Source of the DNA: an uncultured Bacilli bacterium
Lineage (GTDB): Bacteria > Bacillota_I > Bacilli_A > RF39 > UBA660
Reading direction: 5' to 3'
Length of the DNA stretch: 64,000 nucleotides
Assembly (NCBI GenBank): GCA_934096105.1
Contig: CAKOLH010000003.1
Coordinates: forward strand, 1,721-65,720
A program made the translations under genes and the position numbers. Positions 5,891 through 47,837 of this stretch are shown here, one piece after another. The notes under the pieces were generated by a model that did not search any database, was not told where the DNA came from, and worked only from the letters and a program-made list of their open reading frames with translations. Each line of letters opens with the position of its first letter. Position 1 is the stretch's first letter.

Positions 5891-5992
5891 ATAATGTCAC
5901 CTTATTTTCCTCAAATATAATTGTATCAAAAAATATCGAAAAAAGGAAGTAGTTTTTTGTATTTATTTCACTTCGTACTTCGTTACTCAGTG

Positions 5993-32136: not shown

Positions 32137-33243
32137 ATGAAAAAAAATAAAATATTAATACCATTACTAGTATTTGTAGCTTTTATAGGAGGAGCCGTAT
32201 GGTCATATTTAGTTATAAAACAATTAGGTCATGAAACAATATTAACTTCTGGTAGTGGAGGAAATTATACAATAAATGAAAATAGTATATCAGCAGCAGT
32301 TGATAAAGTATATGATGCTACCGTAGTAGTAGCAAGTTATAAAGGAGAAACATTAGTATCAACAGGTACAGGTTTTGTATATAAAACAGATGGATCAACC
32401 TCTTACATAATGACTAATAATCATGTCGTATCTGGTGGTGATTCTGCTAAAGTAATCTTTAGTGATGGTACTTCAGCAGATACCAAAATACTAGGAGGAG
32501 ATACATATGCTGACATAGCAGTATTAACAGTATCTACTTCAAGTATAAAACAAGTAGCAACACTAGGAAACACAGAAAATATGAAATTAGGAGACACAGT
32601 ATTTGCAGTAGGTGCTCCTCTAGGAGATACCTATAGTGGTACAGTAACTAAGGGAATATTATCAGGAAAAGATAGATTAGTAGAAGTAAGTATAAATGGA
32701 ACTACTAGTGATTACTATATGAAAGTATTACAAACCGATACAGCCTTAAACCCTGGTAACAGTGGTGGACCATTATGTAATGTTAATGGTGAAGTAATTG
32801 GTGTTAATTCATTAAAATTAACTCAAGAAACTAGTGGTACATCAAGTTATAGTGTTGAAGGAATGGGATTTGCAATACCAATTGAAGATGCTGTATACTA
32901 TGCTGAAACAATAGAAAAAGGTGGAAGTATAAAGAGACCATACATTGGTGTTAGTATGCTAGATATAACTAATAGTTATTACTTATGGCAGGCTAAGATA
33001 ACTGTACCAGACAATGTTAAAACAGGTGTAGCAGTAGTGGATGTTGAATCTAACTCACCAGCAGATAAAGCGGGTATTAAGAAAGGTGATATAATCACTA
33101 AGATTGAAAATGATGATATATCATCAGTAGCTAAATTAAGATATGAACTATATAAACACTCCCCTGGAGATAAAATAACAGTTACATATAATAGAAATGG
33201 TAAAGAATTAAAGACAGAAGTAACACTTGAAGAAAGTAAATAG
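32137..33243 (+). CDS. htrA: HtrA/DegP-family serine protease with PDZ domain
   Basis: N-terminal TM, catalytic TNNHV, D..A.. and GNSGGPL, and a C-terminal PDZ domain (GIKKGDIITKI). Confidence 0.92.
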   Translation: MKKNKILIPLLVFVAFIGGAVWSYLVIKQLGHETILTSGSGGNYTINENSISAAVDKVYDATVVVASYKGETLVSTGTGFVYKTDGSTSYIMTNNHVVSGGDSAKVIFSDGTSADTKILGGDTYADIAVLTVSTSSIKQVATLGNTENMKLGDTVFAVGAPLGDTYSGTVTKGILSGKDRLVEVSINGTTSDYYMKVLQTDTALNPGNSGGPLCNVNGEVIGVNSLKLTQETSGTSSYSVEGMGFAIPIEDAVYYAETIEKGGSIKRPYIGVSMLDITNSYYLWQAKITVPDNVKTGVAVVDVESNSPADKAGIKKGDIITKIENDDISSVAKLRYELYKHSPGDKITVTYNRNGKELKTEVTLEESK

Positions 33244-33261
33244 TTACTTCTTTTTTTGTAT

Positions 33262-33314
33262 CCTCCTGAGCCTAAGGTCTCAAGAGGCTTGATAGAGCCT
33301 AAGTCTCTATCAAG
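33262..33314. repeat. palindromic units B1+B2 (cctcctgag|cctaaggt|ctcaagagg ; cttgatagag|cctaagt|ctctatcaag)
   Basis: Two abutting units 19 nt after the htrA stop, with no T-run. B1 has one C/A mismatch on the + strand, which is a G-U/G-T wobble on the - strand. Confidence 0.85.
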
Positions 33315-40863: not shown

Positions 40864-41767
40864 TATTGTAAAAAAAATAGTACCAGAAAGTAGATATTAT
40901 CTAAAATGCCCTTATGAGATGACTCCTACTAGAATAGTAGTACATAATACCGCTAATGATGCTACTGCTAGAAATGAAATAAGCTATATGACAAATAATG
41001 ACTATGAAACATCATTTCATTATGCTGTAGATGATAAAGAAATAGTCCAGGGACTTCCTGAAAATAGAAATGGTTGGCATGCTAGTGATGGTAATGGTAA
41101 AGGAAATAGAGAAGGAATAGCTATAGAAATATGTTATTCTAAGTCAGGTGGAGACCGCTTCATTAAGGCTGAAGAGAATGCAGTAGACTTAATCGTAGAT
41201 ATATTAAATAGATATAATTGGGATATCGATAAAGTAACAAAGCACCAAGATTATACTAATAAATATTGTCCACATCGAACATTAGATTTAGGCTGGGATA
41301 GATTTATTAATATGATAAAAGAAAAGTTATCAGAAACAAGAGCAAGACCTTTTGTAGTAGGAGAAATATTATACAATAAAGAAGATTTATATTTACATGA
41401 GACTGCGGGCTATGGTGGGGGGCTAATGCTTTTAAAGAAAGATACAAAGTCAGTAGTTAAAAAATATCATTATAATAAAGGCTTATACATGGCTTTAGGA
41501 GACACTAATTCTTATTATGATGCTGCTTGGACAGATGAATATAGTAAATTTACTACTGAAGAACCTATAGTACCAGAGGAGCCAAAAGTTCCAGAAGAGC
41601 CAAAAGAAGATAATACTAAAAATGAAGAAGATAATACTAAAGATGATAACAAAGATAAAGATAATGAAATAGAATTACCAGTACAAGATAGAGAAAATCC
41701 CTTATTATGGTTATTAGATAAAATTATAAAATTCATAGTTAAATTATTCAAAGGGAGGAAAAAATAA
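40856..41767 (+). CDS. N-acetylmuramoyl-L-alanine amidase (Amidase_2/PGRP type), endolysin-like
   Basis: RIVVHNTAN...GWHA...NREGIAIEIC...HQDYTNKYCPH catalytic pattern, a central putative binding region, a PEEPK/DNTK repeat linker and a C-terminal amphipathic helix. Confidence 0.8.
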   Translation: MVNIVKKIVPESRYYLKCPYEMTPTRIVVHNTANDATARNEISYMTNNDYETSFHYAVDDKEIVQGLPENRNGWHASDGNGKGNREGIAIEICYSKSGGDRFIKAEENAVDLIVDILNRYNWDIDKVTKHQDYTNKYCPHRTLDLGWDRFINMIKEKLSETRARPFVVGEILYNKEDLYLHETAGYGGGLMLLKKDTKSVVKKYHYNKGLYMALGDTNSYYDAAWTDEYSKFTTEEPIVPEEPKVPEEPKEDNTKNEEDNTKDDNKDKDNEIELPVQDRENPLLWLLDKIIKFIVKLFKGRKK

Positions 41768-41786
41768 TTCCTTCTTTCTTTTTGTT

Positions 41787-41876
41787 CAGTCCGAGCCTAA
41801 GGTCTCGGGACTGCTATAGAAAGCCTTAATAAGTCTTTCTATAGAAAATCAGAGCCTATTAGTAGTCTCTGATTTT
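41787..41876. repeat. palindromic units C1+C2+C3
   Basis: cagtccgag|cctaaggt|ctcgggactg ; ctatagaaag|ccttaataagt|ctttctatag ; aaaatcagag|cctattagtagt|ctctgatttt. The three units are directly abutting and begin 20 nt after the amidase stop. Confidence 0.88.
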
Positions 41877-41898
41877 AAGTATATTATAGTTATTATAA

Positions 41899-41963
41899 AA
41901 TCTACAAATAACCGAATGAAAATCCCACAAATAATCGAATGAAAAATCTACAAATAACCGAAT
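41899..41963 (+). repeat. three iteron-like direct repeats
   Basis: Core tctacaaataaccgaat at 41901-41917 and 41947-41963 (identical), and tcccacaaataatcgaat at 41923-41940. Each is preceded by an A-run, with periods of 22 and 24 bp. The array ends 5 nt before a TTGATT-17-TATAAT promoter (41969-41997). Confidence 0.8.
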
Positions 41964-42018
41964 TGTTATTGATTAAATTATTATTTAATGATATAATTTT
42001 ATTAGAGGAGGTATTTCT

Positions 42019-43293
42019 ATGAAGGAATATAAGAAAAGAATTGCCGATGAATTACTTGAGAGAAAGTTAAAAGGAAAGGGTGCTGTTTTAATTGAGGGAC
42101 CTAAATGGTGTGGTAAAACAACTACTGCAGAACAAGTATCTGGCAGTATACTATATATGGCGACTCCGGAAGACAAAGAGCAAAATATTGCACTAGCAGA
42201 GTTAAACCCAAGTTTGCTATTAAAAGGTGAAACACCAAGACTAATTGACGAATGGCAAATAGCACCTAAATTATGGGATGCTATAAGGTTTGAAGTCGAC
42301 CATCGTGGTGAAGAGGGACAGTTTATTTTAACAGGTTCAGCAGTACCAGCAGACCTGAAAGATGTAACACATACTGGAACAGGAAGAATTGCAAGATTAA
42401 CAATGAGACCAATGACACTTTATGAGTCAGGAGAATCAAATGGAACAGTTAGTCTTTCAGAACTATTAAGCGGCAATTCAAAAATAAGTGGTATAAATGA
42501 ATTGTCTCTAGAAGATATTGCTTATCTATGCTGTCGAGGAGGTTGGCCTAGAAGTATTTTTATGGACAAAGATATAGCCTTAGATCAGGCGTTTGATTAT
42601 TATGATGCTATTGTCAATTCTGATATTTCTAGAGTTGACAATGTAGATAGAAATCCCGAGAGGGCTAAAAACTTAATGAGAAGTTATGCAAGAAATATTG
42701 GTAGTCAAGCATCAAATGAAACATTAAGAAACGATATGATAAATAATGATTCTACATCTTTAGATACTGACACCATATTATCGTACATCAATGCCCTAAA
42801 AAAAATATTTGTTATCGAAGAATCACTAGCATGGAATCCAAACTTAAGAAGTAAAACAGCCATAAGAACATCTGAAACAAGATATTTTATTGATCCTTCA
42901 ATTGCAGTAGCGGCCCTAGGTCTTGGACCAAATGATCTAATAAACGATCTAAATACATTTGGATTAATATTTGAAACATTATGTATTCGTGATCTAAGAG
43001 TGTATGCCGAAAGTATTAATGGAAGTATTTACCACTATAGAGATGCTTCAGAATTAGAATGTGATGCTGTAATACACCTAAGAAATGGCTCTTACGGTTT
43101 AATTGAAATTAAATTAGGAGGAGACAAACTAATTAATGAAGGTGCACAAAATTTAATAAAAATGAAAAACAAAATAGATACTAACAAAATGAAAAACCCA
43201 TCATTCTTGATGGTATTAACAGCAACAAGTAAGTATGCTTACCAAAGAGAAGATGGAGTATATGTAATTCCTATTGGATGTTTAAAGGGATAA
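42019..43293 (+). CDS. AAA-family ATPase (AAA_14 + DUF4143-type architecture)
   Basis: 424 aa with SD gaggagg and Walker A GPKWCGKTTTA. The overall layout is typical of the COG1373 ATPase family. Confidence 0.7.
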   Translation: MKEYKKRIADELLERKLKGKGAVLIEGPKWCGKTTTAEQVSGSILYMATPEDKEQNIALAELNPSLLLKGETPRLIDEWQIAPKLWDAIRFEVDHRGEEGQFILTGSAVPADLKDVTHTGTGRIARLTMRPMTLYESGESNGTVSLSELLSGNSKISGINELSLEDIAYLCCRGGWPRSIFMDKDIALDQAFDYYDAIVNSDISRVDNVDRNPERAKNLMRSYARNIGSQASNETLRNDMINNDSTSLDTDTILSYINALKKIFVIEESLAWNPNLRSKTAIRTSETRYFIDPSIAVAALGLGPNDLINDLNTFGLIFETLCIRDLRVYAESINGSIYHYRDASELECDAVIHLRNGSYGLIEIKLGGDKLINEGAQNLIKMKNKIDTNKMKNPSFLMVLTATSKYAYQREDGVYVIPIGCLKG

Positions 43294-43380: not shown

Positions 43381-43466
43381 CTGGCTTATATATAATAGAT
43401 ATGTAGATATATCATTTATAGACTACAGGCTATAAATGACACACTATAGACCCAGGCTATAGTGTG
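43381..43466. repeat. 21-nt leader plus palindromic units D1+D2 (opposite orientation to A, B, C and E)
   Basis: Leader ctggcttatatataatagata, then tcatttatag|actacagg|ctataaatga and cacactatag|acccagg|ctatagtgtg. It lies 87 nt before the pcrA start. Confidence 0.85.
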
Positions 43467-43552: not shown

Positions 43553-45634
43553 ATGAAAGTTTTAGAATTAAATAAGAATCAGCAAGAAGCTGTTAATCAT
43601 ATAAATGGACCAATGTTAGTACTCGCAGGAGCAGGTTCAGGAAAGACCAAAGTACTAACTAGTAGAATAGCAAATTTAATAGAAAATGGAATAAGTCCAT
43701 ATAACATATTAGCAATAACCTTTACTAATAAAGCCGCTAAAGAAATGAAAGATAGAGTAGTATCTCTAATAGGAAGTACTGCCAATAATATACAAATATC
43801 AACATTTCACTCTTTAGGACTTAGAATACTAAAAGAAAACTATAGCCTATTAGGCTATGAAAGAAACTTTACTATCATAGATAGTGATGATGTCTTAACT
43901 ATTATTAAAAAAATAATGAAAGATCTAAATATGAGTAAAGAATACTATAATCCTAGAGAAATAAAGAATAAAATAAGTTCTGCTAAAAACGAAATGATGG
44001 ATGTAGAAAAATTCTCTAAAATAGAATTTGATCATAAGGTAGTAGAAGTATATAAAACATATCAAAAAAAATTAAAACAAGGAAATTCTGTAGACTTCGA
44101 CGATTTATTAATATTACCAATAAAACTATTTAAGAACTATCCAAATGTCTTAAATGACTATCAAGAAAGATATAAATATATATTAATAGATGAATATCAA
44201 GATACAAATGAAGCTCAATATACCTTCAGTAGACTACTATCATCTAAATATCGTAATATCTTTGTAGTAGGAGATAATGACCAAGCCATATATGCCTTCC
44301 GTGGAGCCAATTATAAAAACATCTTAAACTTTGAAAAAGACTATCCCGAAGCAAAAACAATATTACTTGAAGAAAACTATCGTTCTACTAAAAACATCTT
44401 AAATGCCGCTAATAGCGTTATAAAAAATAATAGAGAAAGAAAAGATAAAAATCTATGGAGTAATAACGAAGAAGGAGATAAAATAAAATATAAAAAAGTA
44501 TCAACCGAAAAAGAAGAAGCTTCCTTTGTCGTAGGAGAAATAAAAGATTTAATATCAAAAGGTATTAAAGAAGAAGCTATAGCGGTCCTATATCGAACCA
44601 ATGCTCAGTCAAGAACTATTGAAGAGGAATTACTAAAAAAGAATATCAAATATAGAGTAGTAGGAAGTTTCTATTTCTATAATAGAAAAGAAATAAAAGA
44701 TTTATTATGTTATCTAAGATTAATAAATAATCATAAAGATGATGTAAGTTTGCTTAGAATAATCAATACTCCAAAAAGAGGAATTGGTGAAAAAACAATT
44801 GATAACCTAACCTCGTTAGCAGAAGATGCCGGTATTTCTATCTATGAAGCCATTACTACAGGTAAAGAATTAACTTTTAAAGAACTAATCGAAGAACTAA
44901 CTAAAGATAGTGAGAAAATGTCACTTACTGAATTAGTTGATGACATTCTAGATAAAAGCGGTATAAGAAAAGAATTAGAAAGTTCTAAATTACTCGAAGA
45001 TGAAATAAGACTAGAAAACTTAAACGAATTTAAAGGAGTTACCAAGAGTTATGAAGAAGAATATGGTTCAGCAAGCCTAGAGGACTTTCTTGAAGAAATA
45101 TCCCTAGTTAGTGATATAACCGAACATCAAGATAGTGATGGAAGAGTAAGTTTAATGACCGTTCACTCTGTAAAAGGACTAGAATTTGATTATGTCTTTA
45201 TCGTTGGCATGGAAGAAGGAATATTCCCACATTACAACGCTATCAATGATGGAAGCAATTCCGCTATTGAAGAAGAACGTAGACTATGCTATGTAGCCAT
45301 TACCAGAGCCAAGAAAAAACTCTATATAACATCTGCTGATACTCGTATGTTATTTGGAAATACCAGTAGAAATATGCCAAGTAGATTTATAAATGAAATA
45401 GATAAAGAATATATTGAAGTAGAAGGAATAAAACCCCTTACTAAGATGGTATCAAATATCAAGAAAAAGATTGATAAAAATGCTGAATACACCGTAGGAG
45501 AACATATTGTTCATACTGAGTTTGGCGAAGGTGTCGTAATAGGAGTAGATAAATCAATCCTAACCGTAGCCTTTCCACATCCAACAGGTATAAGAAAGCT
45601 TATGAAAGGTCATCCAAATATCAAGAAAATATAA
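43553..45634 (+). CDS. pcrA: ATP-dependent DNA helicase PcrA
   Basis: UvrD/PcrA motifs AGAGSGKT, DEYQDTN, VGDNDQAIY.FRGA and VHSVKGLEF; 693 aa. Confidence 0.95.
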   Translation: MKVLELNKNQQEAVNHINGPMLVLAGAGSGKTKVLTSRIANLIENGISPYNILAITFTNKAAKEMKDRVVSLIGSTANNIQISTFHSLGLRILKENYSLLGYERNFTIIDSDDVLTIIKKIMKDLNMSKEYYNPREIKNKISSAKNEMMDVEKFSKIEFDHKVVEVYKTYQKKLKQGNSVDFDDLLILPIKLFKNYPNVLNDYQERYKYILIDEYQDTNEAQYTFSRLLSSKYRNIFVVGDNDQAIYAFRGANYKNILNFEKDYPEAKTILLEENYRSTKNILNAANSVIKNNRERKDKNLWSNNEEGDKIKYKKVSTEKEEASFVVGEIKDLISKGIKEEAIAVLYRTNAQSRTIEEELLKKNIKYRVVGSFYFYNRKEIKDLLCYLRLINNHKDDVSLLRIINTPKRGIGEKTIDNLTSLAEDAGISIYEAITTGKELTFKELIEELTKDSEKMSLTELVDDILDKSGIRKELESSKLLEDEIRLENLNEFKGVTKSYEEEYGSASLEDFLEEISLVSDITEHQDSDGRVSLMTVHSVKGLEFDYVFIVGMEEGIFPHYNAINDGSNSAIEEERRLCYVAITRAKKKLYITSADTRMLFGNTSRNMPSRFINEIDKEYIEVEGIKPLTKMVSNIKKKIDKNAEYTVGEHIVHTEFGEGVVIGVDKSILTVAFPHPTGIRKLMKGHPNIKKI

Positions 45635-46978: not shown

Positions 46979-47536
46979 ATGGATTATAATATTTTAGTAA
47001 ATAAAGATAATCCCCTGCCAAGAGCACATATACCAAGTACTTTAGTAGAAGCTAGTAGTAGTTATAAAGATGGCATATTAATAGATAGAGAAACAAAGAA
47101 TGCTTTTGATAGAATGAAACAAGATGCTTTAAGATATGGATACCACATAGATATAGAAAGTGGATATCGTGATTATGATTATCAAGAAAAAATATATAAT
47201 AAATTACTTGAAGAAAAAGGATTTACTTATGCTATCACAAGAATAGCAGAACCAGGTAAATCAGAACATCAAACAGGATTAGCCATAGATTTTTGTATAT
47301 ATAAAGATGAAAAGTGTTACATAGAACATGAAATAGAAGAATTATTAGAAACTAAATGGGTTCATCAAAATTGTTATAGATATGGATTTATATTAAGATA
47401 TCCTGAAGGAAAAGAAGATATAACAAAATATAGTTATGAACCATGGCATATAAGATATGTAGGAAATATAGCTAGTTATATTTATAATAATAATTTAACA
47501 CTAGAGGAATATAAAGAAAGAGAGTCTAAAAAATAG
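46979..47536 (+). CDS. D-alanyl-D-alanine carboxypeptidase, M15B/VanY family
   Basis: SGYRDYDYQ, SEHQTGLAIDF and EPWHIRYVG zinc-peptidase motifs. I prefer the ATG at 46979 after SD ggaggt. Confidence 0.85.
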   Translation: MDYNILVNKDNPLPRAHIPSTLVEASSSYKDGILIDRETKNAFDRMKQDALRYGYHIDIESGYRDYDYQEKIYNKLLEEKGFTYAITRIAEPGKSEHQTGLAIDFCIYKDEKCYIEHEIEELLETKWVHQNCYRYGFILRYPEGKEDITKYSYEPWHIRYVGNIASYIYNNNLTLEEYKERESKK

Positions 47537-47576
47537 ATTCTCTTTCAGTTTCGTCTCACACTAAAGTAGTTCGCCG

Positions 47577-47631
47577 TTTTCTAATGCCTAAGGTCATTAG
47601 AAAATATTTTTGAGCCTATAGTCTCAAAAAT
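47577..47631. repeat. palindromic units E1+E2
   Basis: ttttctaatg|cctaaggt|cattagaaaa ; atttttgag|cctatagt|ctcaaaaat. E1 is clearly homologous to unit A. Confidence 0.88.
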
Positions 47632-47673
47632 AATAATTTATAAAATAATTGCCAAAATAAAAGTATATAATTA

Positions 47674-47758
47674 CTGACTTATATATAATAGATACCACTG
47701 GTATATTGTTGTTAGACTATAGGCTAACAACAACACTTCAAGACCTAGACTTGAAGTG
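47674..47758. repeat. 21-nt leader plus palindromic units F1+F2 (same orientation as D)
   Basis: Leader ctgacttatatataatagata (20/21 identical to the D leader), then ttgttgttag|actatagg|ctaacaacaa and cacttcaag|acctaga|cttgaagtg. Confidence 0.85.
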
Positions 47759-47780: not shown

Positions 47781-47837
47781 TTGACATAATATACTAATAG
47801 TGATATTATTTAAATATATGAATATATATTCATATAT
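47781..47837 (+). promoter_or_regulatory. cad operon promoter and ArsR/SmtB-type operator
   Basis: TTGACA (47781-86), 17 nt, tgaTATTAT (47801-09), followed by a perfect 24-bp palindrome atatatgaatat|atattcatatat (47814-47837) containing TGAA-N6-TTCA. Confidence 0.7.

Follow-up and report, generated by a model that had tools for sequence, protein, structure and literature searches.

A conserved family of arrays of abutting hairpins with an invariant mismatch box in gut bacteria of the RF39 lineage

A stretch of 64,000 nucleotides from an uncultured Bacilli bacterium of the RF39 lineage (assembly GCA_934096105.1, contig CAKOLH010000003.1, positions 1,721 to 65,720; hereafter the window) carries twelve short palindromic units at six intergenic loci, where they abut one another in small arrays. 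The units belong to a family of dispersed multi-hairpin repeats with several sub-families, which is evolutionarily conserved in RF39-lineage gut bacteria and apparently undescribed. Each unit consists of a variable outer stem, an invariant box with a C•T mismatch and a free loop. Whole modules have been multiplied into T-rich, terminator-proximal spacers at the 3' ends of operons and, once placed, have been retained, with pairing and box strongly constrained. With slightly better than even confidence, we read the arrays as a lineage-specific dispersed element of RF39 that is similar to the repetitive extragenic palindromes (REPs) and bacterial interspersed mosaic elements (BIMEs), and in which two or three abutting stem-loops of the same strand would present the box to a putative structure-specific protein.

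All twelve units described in the original prediction were found at their coordinates and with their sequences (Table 1). Pairing is perfect in ten, the exceptions being B1 with one C/A mismatch and C1 with a one-base bulge; the dinucleotides AG/CT close the arms in eleven, E1 having TG/CA; four units share the core CCTAAGGT, and neighbouring units are spaced by 0–1 nt. The units lack the T-run of a terminator and the ordinary terminators of the window lack the family core, as had been stated. Only the claim that the core always starts with CCT was too strict: it holds for 11 of the 12 units, F2 reading TCTAGGT in unit orientation.

The unit family is genuine and lies well beyond chance. It makes up 9 of the 15 perfect stems of at least 10 bp in the window, and a relaxed scan (CC-N1-10-GT with at least 7/8 arm pairs) gave 11 matches there compared with 1.4 in dinucleotide shuffles (n = 100; maximum 5). 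Counts in the window are thus far above shuffled sequence, a comparison that had been suggested, for whole genomes, together with the prediction. The covariance model R1 (with A1), trained on 79 units that all came from other genomes, detected 11 of the 12 units in the 64 kb on the correct strand (E = 7e-8 to 0.04), missed F2 and gave no other significant match in the 64 kb. As controls, five matches to the core pattern in high-GC genomes and 120 viral matches to AAGCCTAAGGTCTT were inspected, and paired arms were present in none of the five and none of the 120.

From ~865 kb of loci we catalogued 140 arrays with 285 units. Units are 25–34 nt long and share a common design, in which an outer stem of ~8 bp with variable sequence leads to an A-T pair, a G-C pair, a C•T mismatch (or a bulged T) and a C-G pair, followed by a short loop that usually begins with T. 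Longer "cores" are additional base pairs only, and CCTAAGGT preferentially folds into two C-G pairs with a TAA triloop and a bulged T. The data support the proposed polarity of each unit, which derives from an unpaired C/T asymmetry. Mixed orientation was found in none of the 140 arrays, the most frequent gap between units is 0 nt, and the folds of arrays reach z-scores of -3.9 to -8.0. Arrays are ordered: a T-rich run is often followed by a hairpin that is GC-rich at its foot and has an internal loop of pyrimidines, then by a hairpin with the canonical core and finally by an AT-rich hairpin, the composition of the arms varying with the position in the array. An extra, partly decayed hairpin stands upstream in 57 of 137 arrays. 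Of the arrays, 19% continue, at a constant spacing, into a small covarying hairpin and the 17-mer CTATTATATATAAGCC; arrays D and F of the window belong to this long form of ~110 bp. Of 29 occurrences of the 17-mer, 25 are followed by the inverted core at a distance of up to 60 nt. Read on the opposite strand, the 17-mer resembles a TATAAT box firing into the hairpins. If it were a gene promoter, however, transcription would run antisense into the upstream gene in 10 of the 18 cases classified, and we therefore assign it to the long-form element and not to a gene promoter. Long-form arrays in three genomes (L039 943-2669, L114 1-2469 and L060 362-676; L-numbers label the comparison contigs and loci) adjoin tandem paralogues that resemble DUF1016/YhcG-type PDDEXK nucleases on sequence inspection, not by database match. 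These multi-copy open reading frames (ORFs) were considered and set aside, no link with the arrays being evident.

Divergence was measured in 24 pairs of orthologous spacers that were picked by their flanking genes alone. Spacer DNA differs at 315 of 3276 sites (9.6%) and loops at 15 of 147 (10.2%). The outer stems carry 11 changes in 486 sites (2.3%), comprising four compensatory pairs and three single-arm changes, and diverge about four times more slowly than the spacer. In the box of AG/CT and CC/GT no site out of 256 has changed, while ~12 changes would be expected after allowing for ascertainment. The original prediction had spoken of a conserved tip; the hairpin itself is indeed conserved, but the loop drifts at the rate of the spacer and the invariant part is the AG-CC/GT-CT box below it. 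Within the species, seven of the nine variable sites in arrays C and D lie in loops or cores. Every variable stem position shows all four Watson-Crick pair types, and for long-form paralogues chosen by the 17-mer alone the hairpin is predicted independently by RNAalifold, both sides having changed in 8 of its pairs, so that an alignment of copies, proposed earlier as a check on the arms, reveals strong covariation. A comparison of orthologous spacers for filled and empty sites yielded little: the number of units differs in only 7 of 273, and a clean empty site was found in none of them.

The arms had been described as unrelated and free. They are distinct within the 64 kb and within one genome, as in Clostridium sp. 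CAG:302, where 32 of 32 sampled arms are distinct and nearest-neighbour distances are slightly below those of a position-specific shuffle. The description does not extend to paralogues of whole arrays, which have related arms, nor to the position-specific character of arms and to the long form with its 17-mer. In the JAZTXT assembly, the module CCCTTCGAG../CTTTTGTAAG../AAATTTTAAG.. occurs at 5–6 sites with unrelated flanks, and similar whole-module paralogy with related arms exists in further genomes. The similarity of paralogous modules stops at the hairpin feet, and neither target-site duplications nor terminal inverted repeats were found at the paralogous copies. Due to the recurrence of whole arrays between unrelated flanks, we conclude that arrays have spread as DNA and that units were not built in place. 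The original prediction had offered as an alternative that each unit arises where it stands, by inverted copying of ~10 nt of local sequence around a fixed core. Such copying could explain why nearly all arms are distinct within one genome and why complementarity is almost always perfect Watson-Crick; whole-array paralogues and orthologous conservation contradict it, however. Arrays of several hairpins are found again at unrelated sites, their arms being related, arm character tracks the position in the array, orthologues inherit and conserve their arms, the long form contains additional conserved non-palindromic sequence, and a conserved C•T mismatch would not result from inverted copying. 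We consider this origin very improbable. A duplication was also observed at L041 (2101-2128 and 3773-3800), where a module of ~80 bp, made up of a conventional terminator, the pre-array segment and one unit, stands in direct orientation on either side of a gene that looks like a cysteinyl-tRNA synthetase on sequence inspection.

Arrays are found almost exclusively outside genes, only 2 of 105 lying in coding sequence. The nearest stop codon is at a median distance of 31–50 nt and the next start codon more than 100 nt away, and both orientations occur. About 40% of the arrays come after a conventional terminator hairpin with T-run, e.g. B, C and E in the window. Among arrays at most 50 nt from a stop codon, 56 of 76 are co-oriented with the gene and 20 of 76 are opposite; for arrays abutting the stop, the numbers are 12 and 9. 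Twelve arrays stand in divergent spacers with no gene end near. An association with tRNA genes was rejected, only 2 of 140 arrays lying within 150 nt of a tRNA. The location at gene 3' ends and the stability of the hairpins would be expected of ordinary intrinsic terminators, and stable hairpins might also occur as chance palindromes of an AT-rich genome. The probability of either is close to nil in our judgement, because only 22 of 138 arrays (16%) have a T-tract behind their last hairpin compared with a background of 12% (opposite strand, 5 of 138), many arrays stand behind a genuine terminator, an invariant box is common to hundreds of copies, and the counts are well above those of shuffled controls.

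It is more difficult to decide between RNA and DNA as the level at which the hairpins act. Stem pairing is strictly Watson-Crick: there is next to no G·U/G·T, and the rarity of G·T equals that of A·C, an unusual situation for a selected RNA helix. The internal mismatches comprise 79 pyrimidine•pyrimidine and 21 purine•purine cases on the same strand as the C•T of the core, an excess that a nominal p-value overstates because the copies are not independent. One defined strand appears to be the folding strand. An RNA-level cis element would consist of hairpins in 3' untranslated regions for protein binding or processing, with an RNA-binding protein or RNase reading an AGCC/GUCU box, for instance, and would be selected gene by gene without being mobile. 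The position near stop codons, the co-orientation of 56 of the 76 gene-proximal arrays, the strong constraint on pairing and box, and the concentration on the unit strand of pyrimidine•pyrimidine mismatches, which RNA helices tolerate, are consistent with this explanation. Nevertheless, we regard it as unlikely. There is almost no G·U pairing, and G·T does not exceed A·C in frequency; about one quarter of the gene-proximal and most of the distal arrays are opposite to the gene, and their RNA would read AGAC/GGCU; ~40% of arrays lie behind a conventional terminator; 12 are in divergent spacers away from gene ends; and paralogous arrays with unrelated flanks show spread as DNA.

Spread as DNA raises the question of the mobilising enzyme. 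The arrays could be ends of non-autonomous single-stranded DNA (ssDNA) transposons, i.e. palindrome-associated transposable elements (PATEs) of the IS200/IS605 type or REPs driven by REP-associated tyrosine transposases (RAYTs), in which case the module would be copied by a Y1 HUH nuclease bound, on the lagging-strand template, to the hairpin and its extrahelical T. Several observations agree with this: the hairpins point the same way on one strand and have their polarity marked by an unpaired T or C•T, paralogues are dispersed without target-site duplication and have their borders at the hairpin feet, and pairing is strictly Watson-Crick. The strand of the units is moreover co-oriented with the majority of genes, as a lagging-strand template would be, in 66 cases and anti-oriented in 45, a modest bias (p = 0.057) in which gene and replication direction are not separable. 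In contrast, no IS200-like TnpA, Y1-type HUH or RAYT gene was detected by tblastn in ~930 kb (best E 1.6, with an approximate probe), the genes bracketed by inverted array pairs are ordinary and include no HUH-type gene, and neither junction has a conserved target or cleavage tetranucleotide, every position in 49 and 62 non-redundant arrays being below 0.8 bits and showing T-richness only. The hairpins of one module also differ in sequence, while the left and right ends of IS608-type elements are near-identical, and conservation in place across species would be unexpected for inert relics. We therefore consider such transposon ends rather improbable, and the HUH, RAYT or IS200 idea of the original prediction is unsupported in the ~930 kb searched. 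Its more general suggestion of a structure-specific ligand fares better, as such a ligand would be the most economical account of an invariant box in diverse stems.

Genes that vary between relatives were also examined near the arrays. An AAA_14/DUF4143 ATPase gene (42019-43293) stands between arrays C and D, with three direct repeats of ~23 bp (AAATCTACAAATAACCGAATGAA) upstream of it at 41897-41965. This gene is absent in Clostridium sp. CAG:302 (L050), so that C and D are only 140 bp apart there, and the breakpoints are 35–130 bp from the arrays. A 104-aa membrane-protein ORF lies on the minus strand between E and F in L002 (9840-10340) and L003 (6644-7144) only, 47632-47675 being the equivalent in the window; one breakpoint of this indel abuts the foot of E2. 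Half-units are not enriched. Arrays as recombination sites for gene cassettes were rejected, the cases (these two and one array cut inside the core) being too few and inconsistent. In L046 (500-700), L011 (7555-7780) and L053 (3995-4195), an inverted array pair brackets ~200 bp in which two further palindromes, CTGGTGACAAAAAGTCACCAG and TAGTCACAATTTGTGACTA, were noticed but no clear ORF.

Among described systems, the RF39 arrays most closely resemble the REPs and BIMEs of Enterobacteria and Pseudomonads, which are associated with RAYT transposases. Both are imperfect palindromes of ~26–33 nt that lie extragenically at operon 3' ends in small arrays, derive a polarity from a mismatch, are dispersed in high copy number and are conserved between related species. 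REP stems, however, are conserved within a genome and accompanied by a 5' GTAG-type motif, whereas the outer stems of RF39 units are diverse and only the box is invariant (four positions per arm, i.e. three pairs and the C•T mismatch). A RAYT gene was not seen in ~930 kb, and the host belongs to a reduced low-GC Firmicute lineage. The RF39 arrays are thus short, extragenic, many-copy palindromes like REPs, and lack their conserved stems, GTAG-type motif and alternating orientation. IS200/IS605 ends and PATEs likewise form hairpins on one strand with an extrahelical or mismatched strand mark, in direct orientation and without target-site duplication. RF39 modules differ in having no junction tetra- or pentanucleotide, stems that differ within a module, a weak strand bias and no TnpA found in ~930 kb. 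The attC sites of integrons are similar in their conserved structure and free sequence, in the choice of strand by extrahelical bases, and in the variable genes that sometimes lie between sites. On the other hand, the alignment of RF39 units has no R and L boxes (RYYYAAC / GTTRRRY), the length of the units is far smaller and they abut, their neighbours are ordinary operons without integrase or cassette organisation, and the breakpoints of variable-gene indels miss the hairpins with one exception. BOX, RUP and Correia elements and miniature inverted-repeat transposable elements (MITEs) of Firmicutes and Neisseria are small, intergenic, dispersed non-coding repeats as well, with stable stem-loops that can affect neighbouring transcripts. 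They have terminal inverted repeats, target-site duplications and full-length conservation, while RF39 units have neither of the former two and only the box is common across sub-families. Finally, the origin hairpins of rolling-circle Rep replicons and of circular Rep-encoding ssDNA (CRESS) viruses combine a variable stem with a conserved apical sequence that is read by a HUH enzyme. Their nonanucleotide forms the loop and is present once per replicon; in RF39 the loop is free, the box is in the stem and the copies probably number hundreds per chromosome.

The pattern of tandem units matched at least 109 stretches in a collection of species-representative genomes. The matches listed come from ~25 low-GC metagenome-assembled genomes (MAGs), nearly all of uncultured gut "Bacilli/Tenericutes", among them Clostridium sp. 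CAG:302, Firmicutes CAG:321 and UMGS1185 (UMGS "Tenericutes"). CAG-302 is a family in the order RF39 (PMC7676259). Arrays typical of the family were also noticed on contigs of 26–29% GC (L013, L016, L018, L034 and L090) that are filed under Oribacterium, Paludibacteraceae and Granulicatella MAGs. These are probably mis-binned RF39 contigs, and the arrays could therefore serve as a binning marker. Phage carriage was rejected, as the sampled viral contigs contained no tandem match and no paired single unit among 120. A search of the window against Rfam gave no match at gathering scores and nothing at permissive E-values, the best overlap with an array reaching 18 bits against a threshold of 72, and nothing comparable was found in the literature on the core sequence, RF39 repeats or REP-like concepts. 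The original prediction that the units belong to no described REP, BOX, RUP or MITE family is in line with this, no catalogued repeat or RNA family being matched in Rfam or the literature. A reading of CCTNAGG as a restriction site or as the bipartite motif of a type I restriction-modification system was rejected because the spacing and the sequence of the core vary.

We favour a REP/BIME-like element whose active form would be a single-strand hairpin of one defined strand and not a duplex protein site, as the asymmetry of the mismatch suggests. The mismatch box would be the recognition determinant of a putative structure-specific protein, and by analogy with REP the consequence may be a structural barrier or landmark at the ends of transcription units. 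Where the hairpins are co-transcribed, as for most gene-proximal copies, they could block 3' exonucleases or back up termination; elsewhere they might act as DNA hairpins. Several points weigh against this interpretation. BIMEs alternate in orientation and have linkers, whereas RF39 units are direct with 0-nt gaps, and the stems vary within a genome, unlike those of REP. The search for HUH genes over ~930 kb yielded no partner protein for the box. The near-absence of G·U/G·T, the 20 of 76 opposite arrays and the ~40% behind a terminator point to DNA, while the 56 of 76 co-oriented gene-proximal arrays point to RNA. The counts of mismatches are phylogenetically non-independent, and the divergence data from 24 spacer pairs are affected by an ascertainment bias: only intact reference copies could be used, so that about half as many box changes are expected. 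The low divergence of the stems and their paired changes could in part stem from hairpin-templated correction rather than selection. A further explanation builds on such correction: the arrays might form a repeat class defined by structure and not by sequence, whose modules are read only through the box by a novel single-strand-specific protein. The class would spread to T-rich sites near terminators without terminal inverted repeats, target-site duplications or a target motif, and its stems would be kept perfectly complementary by templated correction within the hairpin that removes transition mismatches and lets pyrimidine•pyrimidine mismatches persist. We put this forward tentatively, as doubtful but worth considering. 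If it were true, it would represent a new mechanism of mobilisation and maintenance in a reduced-genome gut lineage.

The window comes from a Firmicute chromosome of 27% GC and represents its origin region, with a change in the sign of the GC skew near 6 kb and genes for a DnaB/DnaD-type helicase loader, parA, rpmH and pcrA; human-gut metagenome contigs encode proteins identical to those of the window. Its arrays and the adjoining elements are listed in Table 1.

Table 1 Hairpin units, arrays and adjoining elements in the 64-kb window
Feature	Position	Strand	Remarks
Degenerate first hairpin ("unit 0") of array A	5969..5992	+	CACT-TC-GTA / CTTCGT / TAC-TC-AGTG; 2x2 pyrimidine internal loop, decayed core; DNA fold
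Unit A, TTTTCTGAAG / CCTAAGGT / CTTCAGAAAA	5993..6020	+	between parA (minus strand) and rpmH promoter; R1 42 bits, E = 6.8e-8
Conventional terminator (hairpin and T-run) of htrA-like gene	33229..33257	+	directly upstream of array B; fold, sequence
Array B: B1 33262-33287 (one C/A mismatch), B2 33288-33314	33262..33314	+	R1 E = 0.028, 1.5e-4
Conventional terminator with T-run of upstream gene	41751..41783	+	directly before array C; terminator scan, fold
Array C: C1 41787-41813 (bulged stem), C2 41814-41844, C3 41845-41876	41787..41876	+	locus first flagged; 0-nt gaps; fold z = -5.9
Long-form tail of array D: small covarying hairpin (43399-43410) and conserved 17-mer (unit strand ..TATCTATTATATATAAGCC)	43383..43411	-	
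Array D: D1 43412-43439, D2 43440-43466	43412..43466	-	inverted relative to flanking genes; R1 E = 1.1e-6, 8.8e-4; fold
Conventional terminator of vanY-like gene	47516..47546	+	upstream of array E
Pre-array segment TTTCGTCTCACACTAAAGTAGTTCGCCG, conserved	47549..47576	+	weak fold; related to segment before unit A and to copies in L041, L031, L062
Array E: E1 47577-47604 (closing pair TG/CA), E2 47605-47632	47577..47632	+	R1 E = 8.4e-5, 3.7e-7; fold z = -7.3
Long-form tail of array F: 17-mer and small hairpin ATACCACTGGTAT (47692-47704)	47676..47705	-	fold
Array F: F1 47706-47733, F2 47734-47758 (degenerate core TCTAGGT)	47706..47758	-	F1 E = 5.6e-6, F2 undetected by R1; fold z = -8.0
Truncated unit ACTACTTAAGCCTAAG: 5' arm and half core	57802..57817	+	followed by ~450 bp of unrelated sequence

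Relatives of the window retain these arrays with small differences. At the site in L118 that is orthologous to unit 0 of array A, an intact unit CCTTCCGTGCCTGTAGTCACTCCAGG is present, and L118 has one further unit beyond unit A. Counterparts of array B occur in L020, L059, L070, L113 and L117, where one and the same stem position of B1 is T-A, C-G or A-T; some of them are paralogues, because L070 and L113 share one contig. Array C is kept in the strain contigs L001-L010 with one single-nucleotide polymorphism in the core of C3 and one in an arm of C1, and was also found in L043, L050 and L110. The conserved segment before array E is probably a decayed unit 0. Orthologous to the truncated unit at 57802-57817, L106 (1721-1892) has an intact two-unit array. 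Within the ~450 bp after the truncated unit, a 25-aa hydrophobic ORF MELVLALAWITLVVLFLIDSHSRRR with a good ribosome-binding site (58071-58148) resembles a type I toxin; Rfam gave only a weak GibS match for 57802-58300 (28 bits vs. a threshold of 115). Two other observations concern the window. A perfect 10-bp palindrome, ATATATGAAT-ATAT-ATTCATATAT (47814-47837), lies just upstream of genes for an ArsR/SmtB-family protein and a P-type ATPase; it probably serves as the operator of the ArsR/SmtB-family repressor and has no relation to the hairpin units. At 45241-45341 on the plus strand, within pcrA, Rfam matched n00280, "C. difficile sRNA included into helicase gene", below threshold (35 bits vs. 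a gathering score of 65, E = 0.006).

Bacteria of the RF39 lineage are uncultured, frequent inhabitants of the human gut with small genomes of ~1.5 Mb. Given the density of 12 units per 64 kb in the window, an RF39 genome would contain a few hundred hairpins, and the family represents a substantial and so far unannotated share of the non-coding DNA of the lineage. In practice, the arrays may be used as a signature of mis-binned RF39 contigs and as a landmark of operon boundaries, and they may cause breaks in assemblies. A box with an invariant mismatch, set in stems that otherwise differ, offers a precise handle for finding the protein that would read it, and the family as a whole is a natural experiment in which palindromes stay perfectly paired while their sequence drifts.

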